From a virus: 44,817 nucleotides of DNA. The notes below the pieces were generated by a model. That model saw only the letters and a list, made by a program, of their open reading frames with translations, made no database searches and had not been told where the DNA came from. Each line of letters begins with the position of its first letter. The first letter of the stretch is position 1. Location of the stretch: the IMG/VR virus record IMGVR_UViG_3300019487_000010, positions 1-44,817 of that record, one strand, 5' to 3'. The position numbers were made by a program, and so were the translations under genes. Of this stretch, positions 5,463 through 42,380 are shown piece by piece.

Positions 5463-5908
5463 AGCTCCTCCGCGGTCAGCTCAGCCCGCCATACCACCTG
5501 CCGTGAGCAGATGAACTGGGGCCCGTTGGTCAGGGTCGGGCCAGGACGAGAGACCGCCGCTGCGAAGAACCGCACTCCGTTGACGAGGGTCCTCGAAGAG
5601 AGGGTCTCCCGTACTCGTCGAACGAGCGTCTCGAGCTCATCGAGGGCGTCTTCCGAGTGCGGTCCGTTCTCATGCATGATGAACAGCGTTACGCTGCAGG
5701 TCAACCGAAGCAGAGTAGGGTGCTCCGCGTGAGGCTCTTCCCCACCTAGAGAGAGCACCGCCGCGGGAAACATGAGCTCATCGAGCCGAACGTCCTCCCC
5801 GCTCACCGCGAGCACCACACTCTCCGCTGCGAAGACCTGGACCGCGCTGTCATTGACCAGCGCCCGCAGCGCGGTCTGGAGCACCCGCAGTAGCTGGAGC
5901 GGGCTCAT
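5459..5908 (-). CDS. Putative neck/tail completion protein (149 aa)
   Basis: Position in the connector block and ATGA coupling. No diagnostic motif. Confidence 0.45.
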   Translation of the reverse strand: MSPLQLLRVLQTALRALVNDSAVQVFAAESVVLAVSGEDVRLDELMFPAAVLSLGGEEPHAEHPTLLRLTCSVTLFIMHENGPHSEDALDELETLVRRVRETLSSRTLVNGVRFFAAAVSRPGPTLTNGPQFICSRQVVWRAELTAEEL

Positions 5909-6435
5909 AGCGTCACGCTATCGATCGGAGCTGGACCGGTGTACACTCGGCCGGTGCTGTCCTCGAGCCCCTCCCACTCGACCTCGAGGAGGGTGCGCTC
6001 TTGCCTACGGTGAACGCTCGGGCTCAACACCTTGGGTACCGCGTTCCAGAGCACGAACACCTTGCCTTGGGTGGTGTCCTCAGGAGCGAACAGCAACTTG
6101 TATCCTGTGACCACGCCTACGACAGCCGCGCTCGAGGTCAACGCGGGCACCCCGCTCGAGAGCCACCCCGCCTCCAACAAGCGGTTGAAGTGAGCGACCT
6201 GCATGAGCTTCGCTCGTGCGGCCGCTCGTCTCAGTCCCAACCTCAACCCCGCGTGTGGGTGTTGGCGAGCCCGATGACGAACCGCGAGCCAGTGCCACTC
6301 CTCAGTCCACCTCAAGCCTTCCTCAAGGAACCCCAAGCTCTCTCCGCCGTAAGGAAAGGCCGCTGCGAGGTTCGTCGGAGCCGCGACCAGCCTGCCGGGC
6401 TGGTAGAGGAACTCACTGACGTCGTCGCCGTTCAC
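5905..6435 (-). CDS. Hypothetical structural protein (176 aa)
   Basis: Coupled ORF in the connector/tail block. Confidence 0.45.
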   Translation of the reverse strand: MNGDDVSEFLYQPGRLVAAPTNLAAAFPYGGESLGFLEEGLRWTEEWHWLAVRHRARQHPHAGLRLGLRRAAARAKLMQVAHFNRLLEAGWLSSGVPALTSSAAVVGVVTGYKLLFAPEDTTQGKVFVLWNAVPKVLSPSVHRRQERTLLEVEWEGLEDSTGRVYTGPAPIDSVTL

Positions 6436-7162: not shown

Positions 7163-7581
7163 TCACCGCCCTTTGAGACATATCCCGCCCAGAATGAGGG
7201 GCCGAGCTTCGGTGCGAGGTCCGCGTCATCCGCCTCGGGCGTTCTCACCGCCGACGACGTGGTGGGGATTCCCGCGCGAGACCGCAAGACTTGGAGCTCA
7301 TCCTTCCAGAGCTTCTGCTGTGTCTCCGCCCACCCCGCCCCCTGGGTGCCCTTGTAGAGCTGGAGCTTCGTAAGCACCCCGCGGACCGCCACGGCCACGT
7401 GGGTGGCCTTGGTCACGTCGAAGGTGACCTGACCGAACAGCTCGAAGTCCGCCTCCACGTCGGTGCACGCTTGGACCAACACAGCGGTGTTCACCGTGGA
7501 CAGCGCGCTCCCGGGTGGCTGGGTCAGCTGCGCCAGGCGCTTGGTCGGAACCCGCGCCTGGACTTCGTCTGTGAGGCTCAT
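7159..7581 (-). CDS. Putative head-tail adaptor (140 aa)
   Basis: I chose the internal ATG at 7581 because it forms an ATGA overlap with the stop of 7578..8876. The upstream part of the track ORF is Arg-rich shadow sequence. The N-terminus MSLTDEVQARVP... is typical of gp6-like connectors. Confidence 0.5.
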   Translation of the reverse strand: MSLTDEVQARVPTKRLAQLTQPPGSALSTVNTAVLVQACTDVEADFELFGQVTFDVTKATHVAVAVRGVLTKLQLYKGTQGAGWAETQQKLWKDELQVLRSRAGIPTTSSAVRTPEADDADLAPKLGPSFWAGYVSKGGE

Positions 7582-8876
7582 GGGTCGGTGACCGTCTCCG
7601 CGCCAGCGGTGGCGTGATGGTACATCCGCTTGTACAGACGCCAAGCCCACGCCTGCATCTTGCCGTCCGCGCCGGCAAGAGCGTCCGTGAACTCGATCGT
7701 GTCGTCGAGCTTGAAGTCCGTGGTGCCTGGCCGAATCACGAGCCACGCCTTGTTATACTCGTCGAAATAGCACACGATGAACCCGTCCACCAACAAGTGG
7801 CCCGCCGACGGTGCCCACCTCAACTTGAGGATCGGGTCACCGTCGTTGAGGTTCCGGTAGTGGAGGTTCTCGTTGAGGGTCACCAGGTGAAACTGCCACC
7901 CGACCTGCGCCGCCACCACGACCGGAGCGAACGTGGCGTTGCCCACGGTGGGCGTGAGCGTCCCGCTGCCCGCGGTGAACCCGCTGATCGCGGAGTCCCG
8001 CCGATACGCGAAGCCCGCGAAGAGCGGGCGATCCGTCTTCAGCCCGCCGAGGTTGAAGAACCGCTGCTGGATGTACTTCTCCGTGGCGTTCTTGAGCCAC
8101 AGAGCGTAGCCTATGCCGGCAGGGTTGGTCGTAGAGACGTTTGCCCGTTCCTCTGGGCTCTTGCGGTAGATATCGTCGGACGTGAACCGGTAGTCCGTCA
8201 CCGGGGTCGCGTTGGTCTCCCACGCCCCCATGTCCGTGGGCACCGTCACGGTGCCGCCGAATGACTCGAAGGACGCGTCCCCGATCAACTCCGAGCCATC
8301 GTGGCACCGAACCTGTTGGGTCTCCCGTGCTCCGGTCTCGTCGAGCAGGTCCGCGCCAACGTTCTTCCCGTCGAGGGTGAACGCCTCCCGCCCGGGTTCC
8401 GCCCGCGCACCCTTGTCTTGGATGCACAAGGCCCGGGTCACCCCGAGGTACATCGCCTCGAGGTTCTTTCCGTTCTCGTTGACCGTGAGCCGATGAAGCA
8501 CTCCGTTGCCCGTGCCCGTGACTGAGCCCGCCCCGTAGTTGATCCCGCGGGTCTTGACAGTCTCGGCTGCTCCCACCATGTACTTACGCAGGTCATCCCA
8601 GAACCGAGCCCCCGCGGTCAGGTCCGGGCTGAGGATGACCCGCGCCATGTCCGTCAGGTGCGGGTCCAGGCAAGCGTGCCCGAGTTCCTCGAGGGAGGCG
8701 CCGAGGCGGCGACGATACGCCCGCGCAGCCGCCGCGGCCTTCTCCGCCTCCTCCCCGCGGAGCGAGGCGACGACCGCGTTCACCTTGGTGATCAGGGCGA
8801 TCCCCTGGGTGCGCCCGGTGTCCAGGAGGTCGACGACCGCTTTGATGTCGTCCATCTTCTGCGCGAACGTCGCCAC
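7578..8876 (-). CDS. Hypothetical virion protein (432 aa)
   Basis: Long ORF between the capsid gene and the connectors. No motif recognised. Confidence 0.55.
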   Translation of the reverse strand: MATFAQKMDDIKAVVDLLDTGRTQGIALITKVNAVVASLRGEEAEKAAAAARAYRRRLGASLEELGHACLDPHLTDMARVILSPDLTAGARFWDDLRKYMVGAAETVKTRGINYGAGSVTGTGNGVLHRLTVNENGKNLEAMYLGVTRALCIQDKGARAEPGREAFTLDGKNVGADLLDETGARETQQVRCHDGSELIGDASFESFGGTVTVPTDMGAWETNATPVTDYRFTSDDIYRKSPEERANVSTTNPAGIGYALWLKNATEKYIQQRFFNLGGLKTDRPLFAGFAYRRDSAISGFTAGSGTLTPTVGNATFAPVVVAAQVGWQFHLVTLNENLHYRNLNDGDPILKLRWAPSAGHLLVDGFIVCYFDEYNKAWLVIRPGTTDFKLDDTIEFTDALAGADGKMQAWAWRLYKRMYHHATAGAETVTDP

Positions 8877-11482: not shown

Positions 11483-12715
11483 TCAGCCCTTCAGCTGCTT
11501 CGCTCGCCGCACCCCGGAAGCCGCGGCCTCGAGGAACGCCTTCTTCCCGTGCGGGAACACCTGCCGGAACTGCGCCTCGTTCTCCTCCCAGTCCACCGAC
11601 GCCGCCCGCACCGCCTCGCGGACCTCCTCATCCGCGTCCTTGAACGCGATGAGCTCCTCGTCGTGCCCCCGGCTCTTGACCTTGCCGGGCAGCCCCCGTC
11701 CGGTCGAGATGCGGGGGCGCCCCTCCATGTAGGAGACGATGTAGCTTTCGAGGGCCTTCGTGCCCTTGACGCCGAACTCGGTGATCGTCTCCCGGAGCCG
11801 CTTCTCGTCGAAGAAGACCCCCTCCTCCTTGAAGCGCGTGACCAGGCGCCCGAGGGACTCCTCGTCCGCGCTCTGGGCGTGTCGAGCCTCGAGGGAGTCC
11901 ACGCGGGCCACGAGCCGCCCGAGCGCGGCCTCCTTGAACGGGACCCGAGCGGCGACGCTCGGACCGGGCTCACCCGTGGCCGGCGGCCCGCCCTGGCCCC
12001 CGACCGCCGCGAGGAGCTTCATGAGGAGCTCCTTGATCTCCCCCGCCCACGGCGGAACCTCCGCACCCGCCGTGGGCGGAGGCGGCGCTGGCGGCGGCGC
12101 GGCACCCCCGTCGGGCGGCGACCCGTCCGCGTACTCGGTCTTCTGGTCCTGCTCGTCCGGCTCTTCCGTCTCGAAGCCCATGCACACGTCCTCCTTGAAC
12201 TGCACCCGGCCACCCGTGGTGCTCGGCTGCTCCCAGACACAGGTGACCGGGAGCTTGAAGTACGGCGGGAAGGTCTGCATGAGCGCGAGGCTCTTGAGCT
12301 CCTCCTCGCCAGTGGAAGGCACCTCGGCGCTCCGGTACGGGAGTCTGAGGCTCTTGATCTCTTCGAACACGTCCGGCGGCACCTCTACGAGGTCCACGAA
12401 GATCGTGTCCACCAAGCGCCCGTCGAGCATGAGCGGCCGCACCGCGGGGTTGTCCATGAACCCTGCCGCACGATTCACCCCTGCCACGTCCCCGAGGTGC
12501 TCCACGTGCACTCTCGGCAAGTACCCCTGCGAGTACTTGCGGTGCAGGATCCGCGCGGCGGCTCGCTTGAGCCACCCCGAGGTCAGAGCCACACCCTTCG
12601 CCCCGTCCACCGCCGGAAGCACCGGCACCGCCCGGATCGTGTAGTTGCCGTTGCTCTGCCGCTCCGCCTCGTAGGCGTGGGAGAAGGTATTGCGGAAGGC
12701 GACGCTCCAGGTCAT
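11483..12715 (-). CDS. Putative prohead protease/scaffold (Mu gpI-like)
   Basis: Located between the MuF-like and capsid genes. N-terminal PRVHVEHLGDVAGVNRAAGF...LRLPYRSAEV resembles Mu I-type proteins. It has a Pro/Ala linker and a helical C-terminus that could be a nested scaffold. Confidence 0.5.
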   Translation of the reverse strand: MTWSVAFRNTFSHAYEAERQSNGNYTIRAVPVLPAVDGAKGVALTSGWLKRAAARILHRKYSQGYLPRVHVEHLGDVAGVNRAAGFMDNPAVRPLMLDGRLVDTIFVDLVEVPPDVFEEIKSLRLPYRSAEVPSTGEEELKSLALMQTFPPYFKLPVTCVWEQPSTTGGRVQFKEDVCMGFETEEPDEQDQKTEYADGSPPDGGAAPPPAPPPPTAGAEVPPWAGEIKELLMKLLAAVGGQGGPPATGEPGPSVAARVPFKEAALGRLVARVDSLEARHAQSADEESLGRLVTRFKEEGVFFDEKRLRETITEFGVKGTKALESYIVSYMEGRPRISTGRGLPGKVKSRGHDEELIAFKDADEEVREAVRAASVDWEENEAQFRQVFPHGKKAFLEAAASGVRRAKQLKG

Positions 12716-16185: not shown

Positions 16186-16376
16186 GCGTCCAACGCCGCC
16201 CTCACCGCGCAGTCCTTGGCCTCGAGGAGCTTCCGCAGAGCCATCTCCCGCTCACTCCCGCTCGGCAGCGTCTCGCAGAGCTCGCGTGCCAAGTCGCCGA
16301 AGAGCCGGCTCACCTTCTGGAGCTTGCCCGGGAGATGGGCGTACGTGAAGTACCTGAGCAACGAGTCCTCATCCAT
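16182..16376 (-). CDS. Hypothetical small protein (64 aa)
   Basis: Coupled ORF between the portal and MuF-like genes. Confidence 0.45.
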   Translation of the reverse strand: MDEDSLLRYFTYAHLPGKLQKVSRLFGDLARELCETLPSGSEREMALRKLLEAKDCAVRAALDA

Positions 16377-17742
16377 GAGCGAGTCCTCCCGCCACGCCTA
16401 GTCCTGATCCTGCGCCCGGCGCTCCCGCGTCAGCGCCCTGAGCCATCTGAAGCGTCATCACGTCATCGTTAGCGTCGGGCTGGCTAAAGCCCTCGAGCGC
16501 CTCGTAGACATCGGTCTTGCGCACCGGAATCTGGTACTTCGCGACCCGGTCAAGGCTGGCCCCTGCTACCTGCGGGTCCGGCTTCTCGATCCCAAGGTGG
16601 AACTCGGGATCCGTCATGTCCCAGACACCCATGGCACGGAGGTTCCGCTCGTTGCACACCCGGAAGCACCGGCAGAGCGCGCCCAGTGACTCCGCGAGGG
16701 TCTCTCGATCGTAGGCGATGAGCGAACCTTCGCTCTGCTTCTCCACCTGAGCGCGGGCCATCGAGCCCTGAGCCTGATCCCCGCCACCCGTCGGCAACAC
16801 CGAGCCCAAGATCCGGGTGGTCAACACCCGATCCACGTAGTTGAGGGACTCCATGACGATGTTCGACCGCGCGTTGTTCGCGCCCGGAGGGGCGAAAGCG
16901 TCGAGCTCCACCGCGTCCATGTCGGACACGAACACGTTGTGCGAGCGTTGCTTCTCCACCTGGGCGATGACCTGGTCTACCAGGGTGGAGTATGTCGTAA
17001 GATCCGTCGCGGACGCTGCGCCCAATAGGTTCTTGATCCTCGCGTGGATCCACCCGAACCCGATCCGGGACGCCCCGCTCGAGAGCGCTTCGAGGAGGAG
17101 GGTCTTCACCGTCCAGTAGTAGACCAGCTGAGCCGCCAACCCGCCTCCGAAGCCCAGGTGGCGATCCGCGGTGTCGTACTGATGCCAGATCACCATGTGC
17201 TGGTTGGTCTCGTCCAGCACCACCCACGCCTCACGATAGACATCGAAGAGCGTCCACCGCTGCGTGCGGTCGTCACCGAACTCCACCCGCAAGCGCCCCT
17301 TGTCCACGTCCTCGAGGTGCGTCGGCACCCACCACCGGCGAACCGTCCAGTCCCCGGGCATGAGCAAGCGAGCCCACGTACCGTGAATCACGGCGACCGC
17401 GGTGCCTGCGAAGAACGCTCGCGCGAGGTTGAACCTCGCGGAGCTGAACCGCGCCACGTGATCGAGCGCCCGCTGGTAGATCGGCACCAGGAAGCTGGAC
17501 TCCTCATCGCCCGGGTGCAGGCTCACCCCGCGCGAGGTCCCAGCCACCAGGTGCTGTCGGTACGAGAGAGCGCTTGAGATGACCAGCTCACGCTGGACCT
17601 TCTCGTAGAACTCGCTGTCGACCTTGAGTGCTTGGTCCGGGTCGTCGAGCCACGTCTGAAGACGCTTCAGCGCCATCAGCATGCGACTCGTGAAGGTGTT
17701 CAGGTGCTGGTAGAGCGCCAGCCGGGTCTCCGCTTCGCTCAT
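16369..17742 (-). CDS. Portal protein (by position and size)
   Basis: 457-aa ORF directly after the large terminase and before the MuF-like gene. No single diagnostic motif. Confidence 0.6.
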   Translation of the reverse strand: MSEAETRLALYQHLNTFTSRMLMALKRLQTWLDDPDQALKVDSEFYEKVQRELVISSALSYRQHLVAGTSRGVSLHPGDEESSFLVPIYQRALDHVARFSSARFNLARAFFAGTAVAVIHGTWARLLMPGDWTVRRWWVPTHLEDVDKGRLRVEFGDDRTQRWTLFDVYREAWVVLDETNQHMVIWHQYDTADRHLGFGGGLAAQLVYYWTVKTLLLEALSSGASRIGFGWIHARIKNLLGAASATDLTTYSTLVDQVIAQVEKQRSHNVFVSDMDAVELDAFAPPGANNARSNIVMESLNYVDRVLTTRILGSVLPTGGGDQAQGSMARAQVEKQSEGSLIAYDRETLAESLGALCRCFRVCNERNLRAMGVWDMTDPEFHLGIEKPDPQVAGASLDRVAKYQIPVRKTDVYEALEGFSQPDANDDVMTLQMAQGADAGAPGAGSGLGVAGGLAHG

Positions 17743-20501: not shown

Positions 20502-20540
20502 CGCCTCGATCTCCTCCGGACTGGGCCCCGTTTCCGGGGA

Positions 20541-20662
20541 GGCTCCCCTGTATTCAAACTGCACTTTTGTTCCCCAGCCCCTCCCCGCACCGGCGGGCAC
20601 GCGCCCGCGCCCGCGCAGGAAGCCCCTTTTGCACAAAAGTGCAGTTTGAATACAGGGGAGCC
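20541..20662. repeat. Palindromic element copy 1: 30-bp perfect terminal inverted repeats around a 62-nt GC-rich spacer
   Basis: 20541-20570 GGCTCCCCTGTATTCAAACTGCACTTTTGT is the exact reverse complement of 20633-20662. A second copy lies at 39696-39817. Confidence 0.9.
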
Positions 20663-21479: not shown

Positions 21480-21528
21480 GACCGGGTCATCGCGCGTGCC
21501 TACGTTCTCATGAGCGCCCAGGCGTCGC

Positions 21529-21918
21529 TCACCTTAGTCCCTCCTTGATCACCGCGACCGCCTCCTCAAGGGAGAGCCACCGGGTCTCGTCCTCGACACC
21601 CATGCGGTCACCGCGTATCACGACCACGCCCTTGCTCTCGGACACTAAGACCAGCCAGGCTGGGTGACCCTTCACCCAAGCTCGCATGAGCCACCGCCGC
21701 TGAAGGCCCGTGCAGAACGCGAGGCCCTCGAGGGCGGTAGGGCTCGATGAGCGGGGCCACACCTTGACTTCCGCGAGCCCGTAGCGACGAGGTCCCTCGA
21801 GGAGCCAGTCCGGCAAGCCCGCCTGGAACTTGTTGCCGTGTAGCTTGGTCACCCGCACCCGTGCCCGCTCGAGCGCGGAGCGCAGGGGCGAAGCGAGCCG
21901 TGTCTCTCGTTGCGCCAT
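21529..21918 (-). CDS. PD-(D/E)xK nuclease, VRR-NUC / resolvase-like
   Basis: GLPDWLL ... GLAEVKV gives the D ... E-x-K pattern. I chose the ATG at 21918; the upstream part of the track ORF is a Gly/Arg-rich shadow. Confidence 0.55.
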   Translation of the reverse strand: MAQRETRLASPLRSALERARVRVTKLHGNKFQAGLPDWLLEGPRRYGLAEVKVWPRSSSPTALEGLAFCTGLQRRWLMRAWVKGHPAWLVLVSESKGVVVIRGDRMGVEDETRWLSLEEAVAVIKEGLR

Positions 21919-21923
21919 CGCTC

Positions 21924-22034
21924 TCACCCGTCGTTGAGGGTCGCGTCGTACCACGCGGCCCAGATCCGCCGCTCCGCCATGTTCGCTTCCTGCTCCGCTC
22001 GCTCCGCCTCGCACAGCAGCCAGCCCGTCCGCAC
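21924..22034 (-). CDS. Possible 36-aa ORF filling the gap before the nuclease gene
   Basis: GTG at 22034 preceded by ACAGGGGC. The peptide is VRTGWLLCEAERAEQEANMAERRIWAAWYDATLNDG, and its stop lies 5 nt before the next ATG. Confidence 0.25.
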   Translation of the reverse strand: MRTGWLLCEAERAEQEANMAERRIWAAWYDATLNDG

Positions 22035-22050
22035 GAGCCCCTGTCGCTGC

Positions 22051-22452
22051 TTAGTCGTGGTGACGACGGGGGCGACGACGGGGCTGGCCAGGCACGGAGC
22101 CGTTCGGCGGCGGCGCGACCTCGGGCCGCTTTTCCGCGAGAAACGCACGCCGGAGCGCTTCGGGCAAGAGCTCAAGCCGATCCTCCTTCTTCGCCGCTGC
22201 GACTCGCTCCGCGCACGCGTGGCAGAGCCGCACGCTCAACATGCACAGGTCCCCGATGACCACGTGGGTGATCACGTAGTGCTGGGTGTGGACCCAGCAC
22301 CCGTGGCAGGCTCCCTCGGGGAGCTTCTCGGGCTGAACCCTCGTGGGCACCGTGTTCGTCATGAGCTCCCGCACAAACCGCTTGTGGTCCTCGGTCACCT
22401 CCTCGTGTTTGAGCCCCAGGATCTTGATCGCAGCTTCAGTCCACCTGCTCAT
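22051..22452 (-). CDS. Hypothetical Cys/His-rich protein (133 aa)
   Basis: ORF with CHGCW...CHAC motifs, coupled to the ligase gene. Confidence 0.5.
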   Translation of the reverse strand: MSRWTEAAIKILGLKHEEVTEDHKRFVRELMTNTVPTRVQPEKLPEGACHGCWVHTQHYVITHVVIGDLCMLSVRLCHACAERVAAAKKEDRLELLPEALRRAFLAEKRPEVAPPPNGSVPGQPRRRPRRHHD

Positions 22453-23203
22453 CGGCGAGCTCCTTGTCCTCGCGCACCCGTACGAGGCGGGGGAACCGGA
22501 GCCGCCCGCCCGCCGCGACGCTGTCGTAGGCTACCTCGACCACCATGCCCGCGCGCCAGCTCGTGAAGAGCTGAGCTCGCACCTCGTCGGTCATCCCGCT
22601 CACGTTCGCGACCACCGTGCCGTCTCGGCGAGCGCACACCAGCGAGCCGAGGGTCCCTGCGAACTTCCCCGCTGAGCCCTCCTTGACGTCCACGACCTGG
22701 AGGTCGCAGGTCCGCACGGGCTTGAGCTTGTACGTGTCGTACACGCACCGCTTGTGACGGTAGACCAGCCCCTCCCAGGCTGCGGCCTGGAGGAAGCGAA
22801 GCGCGTCTACCTCGTCGAGAGCCTTGTACGAGACCACGTGTGGAGTCTCGAGCCCGAGCCGCTTGAGCAGGAGCACGTGCTTTCTCGTGGAGAGCTCCTC
22901 CCACGGACCCTCCGGGGTCTCGAGCACCTGCCACGCGGTGAACCGCACCCGCCTCACTCCCGCCTTCAAGGCGGTCAACACCGCGGTCGCGGGCTCAGCC
23001 TCGAGCCACGCCTCGCCTAGAACGACGAACCCGGGTGGGACCCCGGGTAGGGGTCGCCTCGGGTAGCGGGTACGTTCGCCCGTGAACGAGTTCCTCCCTC
23101 GTCCCAGGGCGTCTTCCCGAGAGAGGGTCACCTGGAGCCCGTCGTACTTCCGTTCGACGAGCGTGAGCCCCGGCGGGATCAGCCCCGCCCTCCATGGCTT
23201 CAT
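22436..23203 (-). CDS. lig: ATP-dependent DNA ligase (small, T7-like)
   Basis: Motif I ERKYDGLQV (KxDG), motif IV EGLVYRHK, motif V YKLKPV. I chose the ATG at 23203, which shares its A with the upstream TGA. Confidence 0.8.
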   Translation of the reverse strand: MKPWRAGLIPPGLTLVERKYDGLQVTLSREDALGRGRNSFTGERTRYPRRPLPGVPPGFVVLGEAWLEAEPATAVLTALKAGVRRVRFTAWQVLETPEGPWEELSTRKHVLLLKRLGLETPHVVSYKALDEVDALRFLQAAAWEGLVYRHKRCVYDTYKLKPVRTCDLQVVDVKEGSAGKFAGTLGSLVCARRDGTVVANVSGMTDEVRAQLFTSWRAGMVVEVAYDSVAAGGRLRFPRLVRVREDKELADEQVD

Positions 23204-23430
23204 CAGCACCTCCAGTAGAGGGCGTCTCGCCCGCACCGCGGGCACGTTTGAGCAATGCCGCTCCCCACTCGGAGGTGAAGCCAGCCGCTGACGAGGTGAC
23301 TTACCACCTCGTCAGCGCGCATGACCCCCGGCTCGTCGGAGGGAAGCGGCACCACGATCCCGCCGCACTGGCAGGCGATCATCTCTCCAGGCGGGTAGGC
23401 GAAGGTGCGGCGAGTGAGCGGGCTCACCAC
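23203..23430 (-). CDS. Small zinc-ribbon protein (75 aa)
   Basis: CQC ... CPRC cysteine pairs; GTG start. Confidence 0.45.
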   Translation of the reverse strand: MVSPLTRRTFAYPPGEMIACQCGGIVVPLPSDEPGVMRADEVVSHLVSGWLHLRVGSGIAQTCPRCGRDALYWRC

Positions 23431-23684
23431 CCCGTCTCGGTCTCGGTCTCGAGCCAGGTGGGAACGAGGCAGGTGAGCGCCGGCCGCGGGTCCTCGCTGA
23501 ACACGTAGAAGCGGTGCTGCGAGTCGTCCTCGAGGTAAAGGCCACAGCCTCGCGAGTACTCGTCCCCGAGCTTCGGGTAGAGCGGGTAGAACCCCGGACC
23601 ACGGTCCAGCTTGAGCGTGAGCTCCGCCTCGAGTAGCTCACGCGTGGCTCGTACGAGCGACCAGTCTGGGATCGGGTACTGCAT
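23424..23684 (-). CDS. Hypothetical protein (86 aa)
   Basis: ATG at 23684 preceded by GAGGAGGAAGG, 1 nt after the upstream stop. Confidence 0.45.
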   Translation of the reverse strand: MQYPIPDWSLVRATRELLEAELTLKLDRGPGFYPLYPKLGDEYSRGCGLYLEDDSQHRFYVFSEDPRPALTCLVPTWLETETETGW

Positions 23685-23685
23685 G

Positions 23686-23988
23686 TCACCTTCCTCCTCT
23701 TTGCTTTCCGAGCGCCCGTTCGAGCTTTTTGATCTCACGGGCCATGTCCGCGAGCTTGTCCGCTAACTTAGCGGGCTTGGCTCGTTTGAGAAGCTCCCCG
23801 TACTCTCGCTCGAGCGCGTGTATCGTTCCGACGTCGCGCTCGATCTGCTGATCCAACTGCGGGATCGCCTTCTCGATAAAGGCGAGTCGACCCTTGAGGA
23901 CCTCGCGCTCGTGCACCCGCGTGAGCATGGCGCACCGTGCGGTTTGAAGGCGCTTGTAGAGCGCCTTCTTGTCGCCCTCGTAGGTCAC
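23686..23988 (-). CDS. Hypothetical coiled-coil protein (100 aa)
   Basis: GTG start 6 nt after GGAGA in the conserved leader GGAGACAGCAG. Confidence 0.5.
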   Translation of the reverse strand: MTYEGDKKALYKRLQTARCAMLTRVHEREVLKGRLAFIEKAIPQLDQQIERDVGTIHALEREYGELLKRAKPAKLADKLADMAREIKKLERALGKQRGGR

Positions 23989-24003
23989 CTGCTGTCTCCT
24001 GTC

Positions 24004-24066
24004 CGCCTACCTCGTCAGCGCGCGGAGGCGACCCGCGCGGACCCCGCCCGTAGGCGGGGTTTCGGC
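24004..24066 (-). ncRNA. Type II hammerhead ribozyme motif HH-A
   Basis: Minus strand: GCC-GAAA-CCCCGCC-UACG-GGCGGGG-U-C/CGCGCGG-GUCGCCU-CCGCGCG-CUGACGA-GGU-AGGCG. All core nucleotides are present, with a GUC cleavage triplet and a loop I / 3' tail pseudoknot. Confidence 0.8.
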
Positions 24067-24067
24067 T

Positions 24068-24511
<444 letters not shown>

Positions 24512-24534
24512 CTTTCTCGCTCCTGTCTCCGAGG

Positions 24535-24597
24535 AACCTGCCTCGTCAGCGCGCGGAGGTCACCCGCGCGGACCCCACCTGCGGGCGGGGTTTCGGC
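24535..24597 (-). ncRNA. Type II hammerhead ribozyme motif HH-B
   Basis: Minus strand: GCC-GAAA-CCCCGCC-CGCA-GGUGGGG-U-C/CGCGCGG-GUGACCU-CCGCGCG-CUGACGA-GGC-AGGUU. The core is intact, and the differences from HH-A preserve pairing. Confidence 0.8.
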
Positions 24598-24885
24598 TCA
24601 GAAGTTCAGGCAGCCCGACTTGCCGCTGCCGTACCGAACCCGGATCTGCGTGAGCCTGAACCTGAGGAGCTCCCGCTTGGAGGTGTACTGGCCGTTCACA
24701 GCCTGGAAGTCCTTGTTTTCGTCGAAGTCCCTCTGCGCAGCCTCGAGGGAAGGGTACTTTCGGCCGTACGCGGCGCGGAGCGGCTCCAGCCCGAAGAGGC
24801 TGAAGGGGAACCCCGCTAGGCGGCCCTCGTTCGCGCCCTTCGCCTGGTCATCGAAGCTCTCCTGAAACCGCTCGAGGTTGCTCAT
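24598..24885 (-). CDS. Hypothetical protein (95 aa; possibly N-terminally longer, up to 24987)
   Basis: ATG at 24885 preceded by AGGAGAACC. The track ORF extends through a Pro/Ala-rich stretch from a GTG at 24987. Confidence 0.5.
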   Translation of the reverse strand: MSNLERFQESFDDQAKGANEGRLAGFPFSLFGLEPLRAAYGRKYPSLEAAQRDFDENKDFQAVNGQYTSKRELLRFRLTQIRVRYGSGKSGCLNF

Positions 24886-24904
24886 CTGGAGGTTCTCCTG
24901 TGCT

Positions 24905-25012
24905 TTAGACCCGGAGGGCGGCGCGAGCGAGGCGGCGGGCGCGGCGACGGTCGCCGCGGCGGGTGGCGGGGTCGTGGGTGTGACCACGGGGGTCGTGGCC
25001 GTAGAAGCGCAT
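24905..25012 (-). CDS. Possible 35-aa Arg-rich leader ORF directly after HH-C
   Basis: ATG at 25012 preceded by the conserved AAGGAGACAGCAG leader. The peptide is MRFYGHDPRGHTHDPATRRGDRRRARRLARAALRV, ending at TAA 24907-24905. It could equally be an off-frame artefact. Confidence 0.2.
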   Translation of the reverse strand: MRFYGHDPRGHTHDPATRRGDRRRARRLARAALRV

Positions 25013-25033
25013 TTTCTGCTGTCTCCTTCTGTC

Positions 25034-25096
25034 CGCCTGCCTCGTCAGCGCGCGGAGGCGACCCGCGCGGACCCCGCCCGTAGGCGGGGTTTCGGC
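25034..25096 (-). ncRNA. Type II hammerhead ribozyme motif HH-C
   Basis: Identical to HH-A except that stem II position 10.3 is C instead of U, so G:C replaces G:U. Confidence 0.8.
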
Positions 25097-25105
25097 TCTA
25101 CGGCT

Positions 25106-25489
25106 CTACTCCTGGGCGGTCGGAGCAGGACCCTCGTCCAGGTGCTCAACGGTCGGAGCGGGCGCGATCTCCTGGAGCCTCGCCTGGAGGCGAGCGATCT
25201 TGCGAGCGATCTTCTCCGCCGGCGAGAGCGGCGTCCGCGGAGCGGGCTCGAAACGATCGCGGTCCGCGCGCACCTGGCGGAAGGCGGTGCGGGCCGCGGT
25301 GAAGGCGTCGCGCCAGAGCGCGAGGTTCTCACGCGCGCTCTTGACCTCCGCGCGAGCGGAGCGGAGGTCGTTGCGCGTGAGCTGGAACTGCTCGTCCAAC
25401 GTGCGCCGCGCCTCGTCGTGGCGAATCCGCGGCTGAACGGCGGGGGCGCTCTTCTTCGTGCTCTTCGTGCTCTTGCTCTTCTTGGCCAT
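25106..25489 (-). CDS. Hypothetical protein with a Lys/Ser/Thr-rich N-terminus and coiled coil (127 aa)
   Basis: ATG at 25489 preceded by AGGAGACAGCAG. The longer track ORF would start inside the promoter. Confidence 0.55.
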   Translation of the reverse strand: MAKKSKSTKSTKKSAPAVQPRIRHDEARRTLDEQFQLTRNDLRSARAEVKSARENLALWRDAFTAARTAFRQVRADRDRFEPAPRTPLSPAEKIARKIARLQARLQEIAPAPTVEHLDEGPAPTAQE

Positions 25490-25552
25490 CTGCTGTCTCC
25501 TGCGCCCGCGGTGCGGGGGGTTTGAGGCTGCGGGCTCCCTGCTCACGCTCAT

Positions 25553-25561
25553 ATTGTACCA
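25553..25561 (-). promoter_or_regulatory. Extended -10 promoter element TGGTACAAT
   Basis: Minus strand reads TGG TACAAT. It sits about 60 nt upstream of the first small gene, and a 7-bp hairpin (25561-25578) overlaps the -35 region. Confidence 0.45.
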
Positions 25562-25567
25562 AAGCAC

Positions 25568-26014
25568 GGCTGTGCTTTTTCGAAGAAAGTTCTAAGAGCA
25601 ATCCTGCCACCACTTGTGTCGAGAACTATTTTCTCGGCATGAGCTTTGCCGCACTTTGCCTTTTGAGCCCTCGATGCAAGTGCTTTCCCTCCCCTAACTT
25701 GTGGCCCGGAGCTTATTTGATTTCCCTGGCTTTTCCGCAAGTGCTTACCCCGTAAGCCCTTGCAACAGGGGTCCTAAGTGCTTATAGCATAAGCAGTTAG
25801 GAAGCGCAATAGGAGCGCTCTGGGCCGCACGGTTTGCCCGGTAAGGGTTGCCCACTGCTTGCCACCAGCATGCGGCCCAGAGCGCTCCTGGCTATGCCAG
25901 CGAGCAGCCCAGCTTGCCACCAGCCCCGCGCTTGCTGCGCGGGCTTGCCCGGCAAGTGGCCCACCGTTTGCAGATCCCGAGCTGGCCTGGATTTTGCTTC
26001 CCTGGACGAATCGC
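25568..26014. promoter_or_regulatory. ~450-bp non-coding hub with reduced GC, GCAAGTGC-type repeats, TTGCC repeats and two large palindromes (candidate origin / regulatory region)
   Basis: No ORF here has phage-like GC3. My hand count over 25561-25800 gives about 50% GC. Repeats are listed in the findings. Confidence 0.5.
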
Positions 26015-28015
26015 TCACGAGGCACCCCACCCACGAAGCTCAAGGGCGCGCGACGCCGCGAGCGCGGAGGCGAGCTCCGTTGCGAGCGCGACCGGGTCAT
26101 GCGTGAGCGGATGAGCCTTCACCTTGCGAGCGTGACCCCACGACCGTCCGCTCACCTTCATGTCAACGATGAGCGGGAGCCGCAGGCCCCAGTCCTCCGG
26201 GTCCTCGAGGAGTCGCCAGAGCTCAAGCATGAAGGGCAGGAGCTCGCTCTCCTTCACGGAGAAGAGGAGCGAGTCATGCACCATGATGAGGAGTTTCGCT
26301 CCCCACCGCGGCTCGAGCTCACGGAGCACCCGCAGAACCTTCACCTTGAAGATGTCCGCGGCTCCGCCTTGGATCACGTAGTTCAGCGCCTTGTGGGAGC
26401 CCTGCTCGGGGTTGAACCGGTACACCCGCCCAAGGACGTTACGAACCCACCCGCGTCGCTTGACCAGCCGCTTGACCTTCGTTTGCAGGGCTCGGATCGA
26501 AGGGAACTCCCGGTGGTAGCTGTCGTAGATCTGCTGAGCCAACAGGTCCGTGGTCCGAGTGTCCAGCTTCTCAGCGCGCTTCGCGGTCTGAGTGCCCGCG
26601 CCCATCAGGAGCGTACGCATGGCGGCCTTCATCTCACCGGCTCCGCCCTGAGCCTCCTTCAGCTTCAGGGTCGCCGCGAGGTTCTTGAGGAGCTTGGCGC
26701 GACCCATCCCGTAGACGAACGAGAAGTTCAGCTGCTTCGCGAACTGGCGATCCACCCCGAGCCGGGTAGCCAAGGACTGGTGGAAGTCCGTGAACGGGTT
26801 CTCGAGGAACGCGGCCAACACGCGGGCGTCGTTCGCGTAGTGCCCGAACAGCCGGTACTCGATCTGGCTGTAGTCCACGGACAGGAGCACCTCGTCCGCC
26901 TCATGAGGCTCTACGAACGCCTCCGCCTCCACGGGTACGTTAAACAGTGAGGGATTCCGGCAGGACATGCGTCCGGTCGCGGCTCCCGCTTGAGCGATCC
27001 CCGGGTGCAGAAGCTCCTGCTCATCCACCCGTTTGAGCCAGCCCTCCACGTAGGTGGCGAGGAAGTGTTGGTTCTTGCTGTACTCCGAGAGGAGCTTTCC
27101 CACGGGATGGTTGAGCGTCTCGAGCGCCATCGAGTCCCACTGAGGCTTCCCGCTCTTCGTGAAGGCGAGGGGATGGAAGCCCAGCTGACCCATCAACAGC
27201 TGACTCACGTCCTCGTCAGCCCCAGGGTCACACATGAAGTCAGCGACCTGGTTGACCTCCTCCCAGAGCTGGACCTGCCGCGCCAACAGCCCGTGCTGAG
27301 CGCGCTTGATCGCCTCCACCTTGACCGGAAAGCCCCGCCGCTCCACCCGCAAAAGCTCCCGGGTAAGCGGCACCTCCACCTCGGACCAGAGGCGGCGACT
27401 CAGGTCCGGAAGCCTCTCCTCAGCGGCGCGGAAACAGTCCGCCGTGACTAGAGCGTCGCTCTCCGCGTACTCACCGAGGAGCTCTACGGGGGCCTTCGCG
27501 TAGTCCTTGGTCTTCGCACGGCGGCGCCACGGGGTGAGCAGGTCCTTCCCCCGCTTTCGGTGCTCCGCGTTGAAGACCGCTGCGAGGTAGTGCAGCTGAT
27601 ACGAGGGCAGATCGTTGTGGGTCAGTCGCGAGATCACCCAGAGGTCCTCGATGGAGGCTGCGCTCAGCCAGTCAACCCCGTCTACGTACGCGAAGTGGGC
27701 GTCAAACTTCACGTTATGGTTGATCACCCGTCGGTTCCGCACTAGGTCGCTCAGCCAGCGGGTGGCGCCCTCAAGCTCCACGTTGTCACCATCGTAGTGC
27801 CGCAGGGGCACATAGGTCGACCATGCCCCGTCGAGGGTAGCCACGCCCCAACTCACCGCTCGATCCCCACAGAAGGGCTGGTCCCCGTAGCGATCATCGA
27901 CAAACCCCGTGGTCTCCACGTCGAGCACCACGGGCACGCCGGGAGGAGGAAGCTCCTTCAACTCGCCCACCAGAGCCTCCCCTCCTCCACAGCCTCGTTG
28001 AGGCGAGCCACCCAC
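26015..28015 (-). CDS. polA: Family A DNA polymerase with 3'-5' exonuclease domain
   Basis: Exo I VLDVETTG, Exo II NHNVKFDAHF, Exo III YAESDALV; Pol motif A LLSVDYSQIEYRL, motif B RQFAKQLNFSFVYGMG, motif C IMVHDSLLF. The true start may be GTG 27970 or TTG 27961 (TTGA overlap). Confidence 0.9.
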   Translation of the reverse strand: MGGSPQRGCGGGEALVGELKELPPPGVPVVLDVETTGFVDDRYGDQPFCGDRAVSWGVATLDGAWSTYVPLRHYDGDNVELEGATRWLSDLVRNRRVINHNVKFDAHFAYVDGVDWLSAASIEDLWVISRLTHNDLPSYQLHYLAAVFNAEHRKRGKDLLTPWRRRAKTKDYAKAPVELLGEYAESDALVTADCFRAAEERLPDLSRRLWSEVEVPLTRELLRVERRGFPVKVEAIKRAQHGLLARQVQLWEEVNQVADFMCDPGADEDVSQLLMGQLGFHPLAFTKSGKPQWDSMALETLNHPVGKLLSEYSKNQHFLATYVEGWLKRVDEQELLHPGIAQAGAATGRMSCRNPSLFNVPVEAEAFVEPHEADEVLLSVDYSQIEYRLFGHYANDARVLAAFLENPFTDFHQSLATRLGVDRQFAKQLNFSFVYGMGRAKLLKNLAATLKLKEAQGGAGEMKAAMRTLLMGAGTQTAKRAEKLDTRTTDLLAQQIYDSYHREFPSIRALQTKVKRLVKRRGWVRNVLGRVYRFNPEQGSHKALNYVIQGGAADIFKVKVLRVLRELEPRWGAKLLIMVHDSLLFSVKESELLPFMLELWRLLEDPEDWGLRLPLIVDMKVSGRSWGHARKVKAHPLTHDPVALATELASALAASRALELRGWGAS

Positions 28016-28833
28016 GGAGCTCGTTCGTGAAAGTGAAAACGCCTCAAGACCTGCGGGTGAGGAAAGCTCGCTGGCTGGAAGCCAAGCTCACGCAGACGCG
28101 CAAGAGCTACCTTCCCCAGGGCTACCACGGAGATGGGCCTCAGGTACCGGACCAGCTCTTCAGTCAACGGTTCTCCGTGACGACCATACGCGTTCACCAG
28201 GTGAACGTCCTTAGGGGTGAGCCCTGCTCGAGCGAGCAGGTCGTAGAGGTAGGGGCCGCTCCCGACGGGTCGTCGCCCCTGGAAGGGAAAGCTGAACTGA
28301 GCGACCCTCTTGGGGTTCACTCGCTCAGCGACCAGCAGGACCCGCGGTGAGAGCGACCCCCAGCCTGCTCCGCCCAGCTTCTGGTAACCCACGAGGGTAC
28401 GCACCGCCTTGTCGTGCCTAGCGAAGAGCAGTCCGCTGAGGTCTCGCTTGACCCACTCCGGGTCCGGCTTCGCGGGCAGCCGCATGATGAACGCCGGCTC
28501 TAGCTCCGGCGCTCGCTCGAGCGCCCGTTCATACCGCCTCTCTTCACCGAGGAGGAGGAGGGTGCTGGCGGTCAACGCCGCCGCGAGTCCGAGGTGCCAA
28601 CGCTCCACCACGGAGAGCGCGAGGTTGCGCCCCGCGAGGGGAGCCTCTGCCATGTCGGTGAGCGCCCACCGATCCACCACGGTCGCCCACAGCGCTTGCC
28701 CCAGCCCCGCCCAGTACTGACCGTCGGGCTCCAGCACCCGCACCGCGGAGACCGCCGCCCCGAGCGGGGTGGTGAGCGCTCGCGCGAGCGTGGTCTTGCC
28801 CACCCCGTTGGGTCCCTCGATGAAGATGGCCAC
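27958..28833 (-). CDS. Fusion protein: N-terminal P-loop deoxynucleotide-kinase-like domain + C-terminal uracil-DNA-glycosylase-fold domain with a non-canonical active-site motif
   Basis: N-terminal domain: IFIEGPNGVGKTT and VVDRWALTD (dNK/Tmk-like). C-terminal domain: VLLVAERVNPKRV..FSFPFQGRRPVGSGPYLYDLLARAGL...VHLVNAY...FPHPQ follows the family-4 UDG layout, but AERVN replaces GE(A/G)PG. Confidence 0.65.
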   Translation of the reverse strand: MAIFIEGPNGVGKTTLARALTTPLGAAVSAVRVLEPDGQYWAGLGQALWATVVDRWALTDMAEAPLAGRNLALSVVERWHLGLAAALTASTLLLLGEERRYERALERAPELEPAFIMRLPAKPDPEWVKRDLSGLLFARHDKAVRTLVGYQKLGGAGWGSLSPRVLLVAERVNPKRVAQFSFPFQGRRPVGSGPYLYDLLARAGLTPKDVHLVNAYGRHGEPLTEELVRYLRPISVVALGKVALARLRELGFQPASFPHPQVLRRFHFHERAPWVARLNEAVEEGRLWWAS

Positions 28834-28835
28834 CG

Positions 28836-29711
28836 CTACTCCTCCAGGTACAGGTAAGCAGGAATGTGAGCGGGTATGTAGGCGACTCGACCGTGCACCG
28901 GGGACAGGTGCAGGCTCGCGCCACAGAGATCGTAGACCGTTCCGGTGTACGTGGACTCGACCTGCGGGCAGGACTCGGTGGCCTGACAGTGGACCGGTGG
29001 CACGAACATGTTCGAGGCCTCACCCTTCACCGCGATCTTCTTCCACCAGCACCCGGGGTTGCATCCCTCAGGGAGGAGCGGGGCCAGCCATGGAGACGCC
29101 ACGAGGAGGGCTTCACGGAGCTTCACCGTGAAGACCAACTGCTCGTGGGACTGGGTCTGCGGGCACCGCCTCGAACGATAGAGGTTGAGCAGAGCCGCGA
29201 GGTTCAGGTGCACGTAGATGAAGGAGCTAGCCCCGCTGGGCAGGGAAAACCGGGCCTCGTAGGGCGTTACCTGACGAGAGTCCAGCAGATCAGCGTAGAG
29301 CGTCTTCTGGAGGAGCGCGAAGTGCACGTACCGTCGGAGCAAGGGCCCGCGCAAGACCCGGGGTACTAGCACATCGTCGTCTCGGCAGTCACGATCGCCC
29401 GTGCACTGCTGGCTGAAGGTCACTCCAACGCGCGCGCGAACCAACTGGTGGGTAAAGAACCTCGAGACACCGGTCAGGAGCAAGGTCCAGTGGAGCTCCT
29501 CCTGCCGGTTCCAGAGCGCGCCCTTCATAAGCTCCGGCGACCACTCCTGCTCCCGGGGAGCGTCGAGGTGGCATGCGCCTACCGCCTGCGCGGCTGCTCG
29601 AAGGTCCTCCTCCGAGGGGGCCTTCAAGACCTTCACGGTGCAAGCCTCGGTCAGGTCCAAGAACCTCGTACGCGGCATGGCATCCCAGTGCCAGTCAATC
29701 TTCCCGGTCAT
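28836..29711 (-). CDS. thyX: Divergent flavin-dependent thymidylate synthase (ThyX)-like protein
   Basis: SRFFTHQLVRARVGVTFSQQCTGD aligns with the ThyX motif sR...HQlvRHR..SfSQQSqRY, but with RHR->RAR, S->C and R->G. I chose the ATG at 29711, which shares a base with the MazG-like stop. Confidence 0.65.
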   Translation of the reverse strand: MTGKIDWHWDAMPRTRFLDLTEACTVKVLKAPSEEDLRAAAQAVGACHLDAPREQEWSPELMKGALWNRQEELHWTLLLTGVSRFFTHQLVRARVGVTFSQQCTGDRDCRDDDVLVPRVLRGPLLRRYVHFALLQKTLYADLLDSRQVTPYEARFSLPSGASSFIYVHLNLAALLNLYRSRRCPQTQSHEQLVFTVKLREALLVASPWLAPLLPEGCNPGCWWKKIAVKGEASNMFVPPVHCQATESCPQVESTYTGTVYDLCGASLHLSPVHGRVAYIPAHIPAYLYLEE

Positions 29712-39502: not shown

Positions 39503-39691
39503 CTACGGCAAAACCTCCACGAACAGGTTCACCGTCTGCCCGGGCTGAAGCCCCCAGTCGCTCGGGAACAAGAGCGCCCCGACCTCGCGGAGCGCCCCTC
39601 GCTCGTCTCGCTCCGCGAACGTCACCTGAAGGGCTCCTGGCTTCGGAGCCATCTGAACTCCGAACACGACCACCTTCACGCTCTGGTTCAT
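39503..39691 (-). CDS. Hypothetical small protein (62 aa)
   Basis: I chose the ATG at 39691. Its SD (AGGGGAG) lies inside the 3' arm of the palindromic element. Confidence 0.4.
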   Translation of the reverse strand: MNQSVKVVVFGVQMAPKPGALQVTFAERDERGALREVGALLFPSDWGLQPGQTVNLFVEVLP

Positions 39692-39695
39692 GGGC

Positions 39696-39817
39696 GGCTC
39701 CCCTGTATTCAAACTGCACAATTTGAAAAGTGGCTATGCCTGCGCGGGCGCGGGCGCGTGCCCGCCGGTGCGGGGCTCCCCTTTTGCACAAAAGTGCAGT
39801 TTGAATACAGGGGAGCC
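39696..39817. repeat. Palindromic element copy 2: 24-bp perfect terminal inverted repeats around a 74-nt spacer
   Basis: 39696-39719 is the exact reverse complement of 39794-39817. The arms are identical to copy 1, and the 37-nt core is inverted relative to copy 1. Confidence 0.9.
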
Positions 39818-41945: not shown

Positions 41946-42380
41946 TCAGCCGATCGAGTAGATCAGCTCAATGCTGGGCAGGGTGACGACGGTGCCGTTC
42001 CCGATCATGTCGTCGAGGCCCCAGCCCTTGGCCGCCACGAGCACGTCGAACGACCCGTTGCGGACCCTGACCACGTTCGCCAGGAACAGGACCCCCGCGT
42101 CGCCGGCGTCCGTGTCAGCGCCGTTGCGCTGCACCGACAGCAGGATCTTGCTCGCTGCGGTGACACGCGCGTCCGTGACCGTGTAGCGTACGAGGGAGTC
42201 CCCGATCGACACCTGCGTGCTGGCCGTCACCGTGCCGGCCCCAGGACGCAGGCCGCTGTCGGCTCGCATCACGGGGCGCTGCGTCCCGTAGCTGTCCTGG
42301 TCGAGGACCACCGGTGCGCCGTCGTTGTCCGCGGTCAGGTCAGCCAGGTCGATGACGACGCGGGTCAGGGTGCCGCTCAT
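41946..42380 (-). CDS. Hypothetical protein coupled to the tail fibre gene (144 aa)
   Basis: 4-nt overlap with the tail fibre stop. A fibre accessory or assembly role is only positional. Confidence 0.45.
   Translation of the reverse strand: MSGTLTRVVIDLADLTADNDGAPVVLDQDSYGTQRPVMRADSGLRPGAGTVTASTQVSIGDSLVRYTVTDARVTAASKILLSVQRNGADTDAGDAGVLFLANVVRVRNGSFDVLVAAKGWGLDDMIGNGTVVTLPSIELIYSIG

Follow-up and report, generated by a model that had tools for sequence, protein, structure and literature searches.

Three elements with the sequence and structure of type II hammerhead ribozymes (HH1, HH2 and HH3) lie on the minus strand between the genes for a family A DNA polymerase (PolA) and an ATP-dependent DNA ligase of the window, the whole stretch of 44,817 nucleotides of viral DNA analysed here. 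The window is the complete genome of an uncultured tailed phage. Its ends repeat exactly (positions 1-123 and 44695-44817, 100% identity over 123 bp) and the genome is therefore complete, at ~44.7 kb (about 44,694 bp); the end identity corresponds to a terminal redundancy or to an overlap of circular assembly. The genome has 65% GC and carries essentially all genes on the minus strand. Structural genes encode a terminase, a major head protein and a minor head protein or DNA pilot-like protein, while a replication block encodes an SNF2 helicase, a primase-helicase, ThyX, PolA and the ligase.

Similarity to known phages is low. The identity of PolA does not exceed 36% in IMG/VR or JGI metagenomes or 29% among deposited phages, and the terminase reaches at most 24% identity to the latter. 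A megablast search with the 22-27 kb region against phages returned no nucleotide relatives, the exact hammerhead-stem pattern had no match in IMG/VR, a PolA scan of genome contigs gave no relatives, and none of three window proteins looked up by exact match was present in the collection searched. Several large ORFs (652-2736, 2733-4694, 7578-8876, 11483-12715 and 16369-17742) have no PHROG match, which underlines the distance from described phages. The gene strand starts with an ORF of 802 aa (42377-44785, minus strand) that has no Pfam match.

Intergenic gaps of at least 60 nt are few, and three of them, all between PolA and the ligase, hold the hammerheads, which separate small ORFs (Table 1). 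Each hammerhead begins at -1 to +8 nt relative to a stop codon, and 12-20 nt lie between its end and the next start codon. The first nucleotide of HH2 overlaps a TGA stop (24600-24598). For HH1, an earlier note on this DNA had correctly located the preceding stop (24070-24068) and the following GTG start (23988). It had also placed the motif between two early genes; the position between genes holds, whereas early expression is not established, the genes being part of the PolA-ligase replication module. Directly upstream of HH3 (25098-25108, minus strand), a duplication of TAGAGCCG (TAGAGCCGTAGAGCCGAAAC) puts the true stop 8 nt upstream, together with a copy of the ribozyme's first bases, an arrangement that resembles a small duplication scar between gene and ribozyme.

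Table 1. Positions of the module's genes, hammerheads and predicted cleavage bonds in the window, and of low-scoring hammerheads in its relatives (SD, Shine-Dalgarno sequence).
Feature	Positions	Strand	Basis or remarks
PolA, upstream boundary of the module	26015-28015	-	Pfam PF00476, E=5e-56
Non-coding region of 525 nt between PolA and the ribozyme-bearing genes	25490-26014	-	19-bp inverted repeat; -10-like match
127-aa gene upstream of HH3	25106-25489	-	ATG 25489; SD CAGGAGACAGCAG; stop TAG 25108-25106
HH3, type II hammerhead	25031-25097	-	Rfam, 49.2 bits
HH3 predicted cleavage bond	25070/25069	-	Hammerhead consensus
35-codon ORF (MRFYGHDPRGH...)	24905-25012	-	Strong SD AAGGAG; 18 nt after HH3
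ORF between HH3 and HH2	24598-24987	-	True start may be ATG 24885
HH2, type II hammerhead	24532-24598	-	Rfam, 45.1 bits; rule-based parser
HH2 predicted cleavage bond	24571/24570	-	Hammerhead consensus
147-aa fam gene between HH2 and HH1	24068-24511	-	BLASTP to L001 homolog, E=4e-17
HH1, type II hammerhead ribozyme	24001-24067	-	Rfam RF02276; rule-based parser; own covariance model R2 (73.4 bits)
HH1 predicted scissile bond, 3' of C17	24040/24039	-	Hammerhead consensus
100-aa coiled-coil gene downstream of HH1	23686-23988	-	GTG 23988; SD GGAG 23999-23996; L001 homolog, E=3e-6
ATP-dependent DNA ligase, downstream boundary of the module	22436-23245	-	Pfam PF14743/PF04679; PHROG 114
Relatives' copies below the Rfam gathering threshold	L008 10332-12045; L059 778-841; L060 1940-2009; L057 2268-2355; L053 5862-5988		Clade-specific model and rule-based parser

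The small genes of the module share no detectable paralogy in an all-against-all BLASTP comparison of the hammerhead-flanked ORFs, and the idea of a duplicated cassette of gene plus ribozyme was dropped for this reason. A cassette of hammerhead plus Shine-Dalgarno (SD) sequence was likewise rejected, as the same SD context occurs at genes that lack a hammerhead. Between HH3 and HH2 the gene model is uncertain, the 35-codon ORF overlapping the annotated start region of the longer ORF. The 147-aa fam protein has a Lys-rich N-terminus (KKTPAAKKTPAAK), a confidently predicted coiled-coil C-terminal helix and a very acidic 40-residue poly-Asp/Glu tail that is absent from its homologs. Its AlphaFold model is of low confidence (pLDDT 64, pTM 0.31). 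The GC3 of the gene (0.98) equals that of the capsid genes, which fits high expression but is only suggestive of it.

Upstream of the first flanked gene, the 525-nt gap contains a perfect 19-bp inverted repeat (25811-25829 and 25871-25889) together with several AAGCACTT(G) motifs, and a sequence that resembles an extended -10 element, TGgTACAAT (25561-25553, minus strand). Judged from these sequence features, the gap may hold a promoter or other control region of the transcript with the hammerheads; an origin and a non-coding RNA are further candidates. Relatives that bear hammerheads have a gap of ~370-450 nt after PolA, and no shared motif is evident among the post-PolA gaps of these lineages. 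A consensus scan of the gene strand from PolA to the ligase yielded neither a sigma-70-type promoter nor an intrinsic terminator, and the ORFs scanned included no T7-type RNA polymerase, RNA ligase, polynucleotide kinase or end-healing enzyme.

Elsewhere in the window, an element of ~120-140 nt occurs twice at boundaries of gene blocks (20525-20662 and 39680-39817). It has perfect inverted arms of 24-30 nt (GGCTCCCCTGTATTCAAACTGCAC...) around a GC-rich centre, which one copy carries as the reverse complement of the other. Both copies form very large hairpins on the gene strand (-102 and -81 kcal/mol, with z-scores of -8.7 and -7.3). The element may serve in RNase III-type processing, as a terminator or regulatory site, or at the DNA level.

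Structure and class of the three hammerheads

The earlier note had read HH1 from the letters alone, as a minus-strand hammerhead running from 24066 to 24004, and this reading matches the sequence exactly. The search that it proposed, against the Rfam model for type II hammerheads, was run as a cmscan of the whole window on both strands with 4227 families. HH1 matched RF02276 (Hammerhead_II) over the full length of the model with 47.8 bits (E=7.1e-7), the gathering score of the family being 37 bits. A rule-based parser, which checks hammerhead elements independently of covariance models (CMs), recovered all elements in HH1, HH2 and HH3. By sequence and structure, membership of HH1 in the type II class is thus confirmed.

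The order of elements in HH1 gives the type II topology, in which stems I and III are closed by loops and stem II is open. Stem II consists of three pairs (G:C, G:C and U:G) between GCC (24066-24064) and GGU (24011-24009), and is followed by G12, A13 and A14 (GAA, 24063-24061). Stem III has 8 bp (24060-24053 and 24048-24041, ACCCCGCC/GGCGGGGU), is closed by a UACG loop and includes the A15.1:U16.1 pair (A24060:U24041). C17, at 24040, completes a GUC triplet, and nucleotide 17 is not G, as the class requires. Stem I (24039-24033 and 24025-24019) has a C:G pair next to the core; the hairpin that the earlier note gave as 7 bp is present, its length being readable as 7 or 8 bp. The core from C3 to A9 reads CUGACGA (24018-24012). 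A pseudoknot of 5-6 bp joins UCGCCU of loop I (24031-24026) to AGGCGG of the 3' tail (24008-24003). The Rfam model and the parser together bear out the full set of invariant core positions, and the parser alone recovers stem II and stem III with its loop and A15.1:U16.1 pair as first described. The GUC triplet and the bond next to it also lie where the earlier note had put them. Cleavage at this predicted bond would leave an upstream product that ends in ...GGCGGGGUC with a 2',3'-cyclic phosphate, and a downstream product that begins with a 5'-OH at CGCGCGG....

The single motif of the earlier note is genuine but is one of three copies in the window. The copies lie on the same strand, each between ORFs, at spacings of 499 and 531 nt, and relaxing the Rfam search to E<=1 added no further ribozymes in the window. 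HH3 is 99% identical to HH1. The CUGACGA and GAA cores are identical in all three copies, while the third pair of stem II is U:G in HH1 and C:G in HH2 and HH3, the 3' strand reading GGU or GGC. The loop I/3'-tail pseudoknot, also part of the first description, spans 6 bp (UCGCCU/AGGCGG) in both HH1 and HH3, against 5 bp (GACCU/AGGUU) in HH2, with differences between copies on both strands.

As isolated 67-nt sequences, HH1-HH3 have hammerhead folds that lie 0.6-2.7 kcal/mol from the minimum free energy (MFE) with the pseudoknot uncounted. The predicted product hairpins amount to -15 to -19 kcal/mol for stem III and -15 kcal/mol for stem I. When more flanking sequence is included, stem I of HH1 and of HH3 faces competition from an alternative pairing in the MFE fold. 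Fold z-scores of the isolated ribozyme regions are not significant against the GC-rich genome background, nor are per-sequence shuffles of the pseudoknot on their own, and covariation was therefore used as evidence.

Other classes of RNA element fit the copies poorly. The stem I hairpin is followed by CUGACGAGG, not by a U-tract, and a terminator scan of 21500-29000 found none on the minus strand, in agreement with the initial view that the hairpins are not intrinsic terminators. RNase III hairpins of the T7 type have a near-continuous stem of ~20 bp or more, and the stems here have 7-8 bp. Retrozymes and viroid-like circular RNAs are non-coding units bounded by type I or III hammerheads, with repeats or LTRs; the units here carry ORFs with SD sequences, their ribozymes are of type II, and the genome is that of a dsDNA phage.

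The module in related phages

The module extends to an uncultured phage clade. A single-sequence search with the 147-aa fam protein found no homologs; these emerged from synteny with L001, the closest relative, which revealed counterparts of both the 147-aa and the 100-aa genes. A profile of three sequences then retrieved at least 16 family members. The gene order PolA, fam, ligase is present in every genomic context fetched. In the AT-rich L006, whose PolA is 28% identical to that of the window, PolA is followed by three small ORFs, each with a type II hammerhead after it, and then by the ligase.

Rfam, two CMs of our own and the rule-based parser together identified 22 type II hammerheads in eight lineages of the clade: five each in L056 and L008, three each in the window, L006 and L053, and one each in L059, L060 and L057. 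All 22 are on the sense strand and inside the module of PolA, small genes and ligase. The eight lineages span 34-65% GC, and the whole clade 33-65%. Of 20 copies examined, most begin between -1 and +8 nt relative to the upstream stop, and an SD sequence and start codon follow 11-58 nt after it in the copies examined across lineages. About a third of the copies (8 of 22) fall below the Rfam threshold and were recovered with the clade-specific model and the parser (Table 1). A first CM, trained on the three GC-rich copies, overlooked AT-rich ones under default filters; it was rerun with filters off and rebuilt. MAFFT mis-registered stems III and I when applied to the copies of the window and L006, and a CM-based alignment was used instead.

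Covariation supports the shared fold. In a structure-aware alignment of 17 copies, which was fitted to the model, 99.3% of cells are paired, compared with 30-57% when partners are slid. Compensatory double changes occur in 15 of 18 pairs of these 17 copies, and none of 500 shuffles reached the observed values. Eleven invariant core nucleotides are kept across lineages with wholly different stem sequence and GC content. The pseudoknot follows the same pattern in the relatives, where GGC loops go with GCCA tails in six of six cases and GGU loops with ACCA tails in three of four.

Positional orthologs are kept between L006, L056 and L053. In L006 and L056 the orthologs are each other's best match, at 92-94%, which argues for vertical retention at each junction. 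Two copies deviate from the standard form. The hammerhead of L053 at 5862-5988 contains an insertion of ~60 nt. That of L006 at 11620-11685 reads CCGAUGA for CUGAUGA, a change of U4 to C at a normally invariant core position; judged by this substitution it may be a weakened or inactive copy, and its positional ortholog in L056 (4211-4275) has a normal CUGACGA.

In the lineages examined, a junction after fam that lacks a hammerhead holds another structured RNA element instead. In L001 this is a hairpin of ~35 bp without a U-tract (-57 kcal/mol, z=-7.6). Long hairpins without a U-tract are also found in L005 (-71 kcal/mol, z=-5.2) and L019 (-46 kcal/mol, z=-5.4), with similar ones in L051, L055, L058 and L061, and the long hairpins at this orthologous junction measure 22-35 bp. 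L002 and L057 have a terminator-like hairpin with a U-run after fam. With a hammerhead or another structured element at the junction, each lineage can therefore define or protect a 3' end there. By analogy, the long hairpins are candidate RNase III sites, and the chances are roughly even that selection at this one junction has favoured hammerheads or long hairpins of RNase III type as solutions that can replace each other. A limited literature search found no description of the PolA/fam/ligase module, or of hammerhead-hairpin alternation at one junction. A contig of a PolA-related phage (L011) carries two twister-P5 ribozymes (RF02684) on the plus strand, at 3793-3849 (58.5 bits) and 4237-4290 (43.3 bits).

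Proposed role and comparison with known systems

The class membership of the elements, their covariation, their placement and their conservation across the phage clade are in keeping with a role in RNA processing. Such a role has been proposed for clustered phage hammerheads (PMC3088659; PMC6765202), although the function of bacterial and phage hammerheads has been called elusive in review (PMC6765202). The hammerheads of the window probably serve to divide a polycistronic mRNA, by host-independent self-processing, into units whose ends are protected by hairpins, a reading that presupposes cleavage in vivo, a single transcript and effects on stability and translation.

As RNA polymerase passes, the ribozyme would fold through stem III, stem I, the 3-bp stem II and the pseudoknot, and would cut itself 3' of C17 while transcription continues. 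The upstream message would then end 28 nt after its stop codon in the GC-rich hairpin of stem III, with a 2',3'-cyclic phosphate. The downstream message would begin with a 5'-OH nucleotide that is already paired at the base of stem I, and its SD sequence, ~40 nt past the cut and outside the ribozyme fold, would be free. Polycistronic RNA would thus be split into separate mRNAs, each having a standard leader and hairpins that protect its ends, and the stability and translation of neighbouring small genes would be uncoupled with no need for a host nuclease. A single transcript is supported by the empty promoter and terminator scan of the gene strand between PolA and the ligase. A counterpoint is the possible promoter just upstream of the first flanked gene, which consists of a -10-like match. 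As to stability, 5'-terminal hairpins stabilise mRNA (PMC3997798). However, RNase J1 degrades the glmS mRNA after ribozyme cleavage, a 5'-OH being not always protective (PMC3997798), and cleavage could therefore destabilise the downstream message instead.

Other readings of the elements were weighed. The likeness to hammerheads might be incidental, with no cleavage taking place and the GC-rich hairpins acting as a terminator, an attenuator, or a nuclease or protein-binding site. Isolated fold z-scores, unremarkable in a GC-rich genome, are compatible with this, but it is scarcely credible in view of three Rfam matches with E of about 1e-7, the lack of a U-tract and a core that does not vary between lineages with entirely different stem sequences and GC content. 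The copies could instead be selfish or neutral repeats that were duplicated within intergenic gaps and may cleave with no benefit to the phage. This would agree with the high similarity of copies within a genome (99% for HH1 and HH3, while the L008 copies best match each other) and with a copy number that varies from 1 to 5 between lineages and falls to none in some relatives. It is nevertheless unlikely: every one of the 22 copies is sense-oriented and confined to one module, positional orthologs persist between L006, L056 and L053, the stems covary around an invariant core, and junctions without a hammerhead hold another structured element.

Active ribozymes could also form a regulated switch, with cleavage, and through it the fate of the downstream gene's mRNA, tied to upstream translation, Mg2+ or temperature. 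With the stop at -1 to +8 nt from the hammerhead, as in the majority of 20 copies examined, the 5' strand of stem II and part of stem III would be hidden under a ribosome that terminates there, and Perreault et al. speculated on condition-tuned hammerhead variants in haloviruses (PMC3088659). A switch is quite unlikely all the same, since cleavage is fast and irreversible, so that any ribosome-free moment would be enough, no aptamer or extra domain is present, and genome compaction alone can account for the tight spacing. Lastly, the excised RNAs of 499 nt (25069-24571) and 531 nt (24570-24040) might be joined into circular mRNAs or spliced products, by self-ligation of the ribozyme or by a host RtcB-type ligase. 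2',3'-cyclic phosphate and 5'-OH ends are substrates of RtcB, and with near-identical copies the 5' and 3' ends of an excised fragment can re-form a complete hammerhead. If true, the small proteins of the replication module would be made from exonuclease-proof, repeatedly translatable messages. Perreault et al. raised the possibility of such joining but found neither circular nor spliced products when they sought them in comparable triple arrangements (PMC3088659). As the ORFs scanned include no RNA ligase or end-healing enzyme, and the halves should dissociate at a stem II of only 3 bp, joining is very improbable. Self-processing into separate messages remains the preferred reading.

Processing of a phage transcript at intercistronic sites has a precedent in the polycistronic early RNA of T7, which contains five RNase III signals (PMC3867540). 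By analogy, the elements described here, with cleavage predicted, would resemble the T7 sites in being intercistronic and non-terminating, in yielding discrete mRNAs and in leaving a hairpin at the upstream 3' end. Unlike at the T7 sites, catalysis is predicted to reside in the RNA, with no host enzyme, and the predicted ends are a 2',3'-cyclic phosphate and a 5'-OH instead of a 3'-OH and a 5'-phosphate. The stems of 7-8 bp are too short for RNase III.

RiboJ insulators, engineered from a type III satellite-RNA hammerhead and placed upstream of a ribosome binding site, remove variable 5' RNA and leave a defined, hairpin-containing leader that standardises downstream translation. Compared with RiboJ, the elements of the window are natural, belong to type II and, through their predicted cleavage, would also define the 3' end of the upstream gene. 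The twister-P5 pair of L011 is similar in being a self-cleaving class present as two same-strand copies ~440 nt apart in a PolA-related phage; its fold differs, and it lies upstream of PolA, not downstream. This pair fits the view that ribozyme classes are interchangeable in such contexts (PMC6765202).

The closest parallels are the natural type II hammerheads of Perreault et al. (2011), which form clusters in prophages and have a loop I/3'-tail pseudoknot of 4 bp or more (PMC3088659). Both the ribozyme class and its clustering around phage genes have been known since that study, in which triple arrangements flanking phage genes cleaved in vitro and in E. coli, and long phage transcripts were proposed to be processed to single-gene mRNAs (PMC3088659). 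Three type II hammerheads near phage-like genes of Desulfovibrio vulgaris are active in vivo (PMC8782182). The array described here shares with the 2011 clusters the core, the stem II-open topology, the short stem II, the loop I/3'-tail pseudoknot and the presence, in a phage genome, of several same-strand copies that border single genes or short gene blocks. It differs in its new genome, without a nucleotide match in phage or IMG/VR collections, in its very GC-rich stems and in its location in a conserved module of PolA, small genes including fam, and ligase of an uncultured phage clade. Its value lies in this setting, where one to five ribozymes are kept at fixed junctions of a defined module in lineages from 33% to 65% GC. 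The natural swap of hammerhead and hairpin makes host-independent processing and end protection testable by exchanging the elements. If the interchange is true, it offers a first comparative handle on the purpose of the hammerheads that phages have been known to cluster around their genes.
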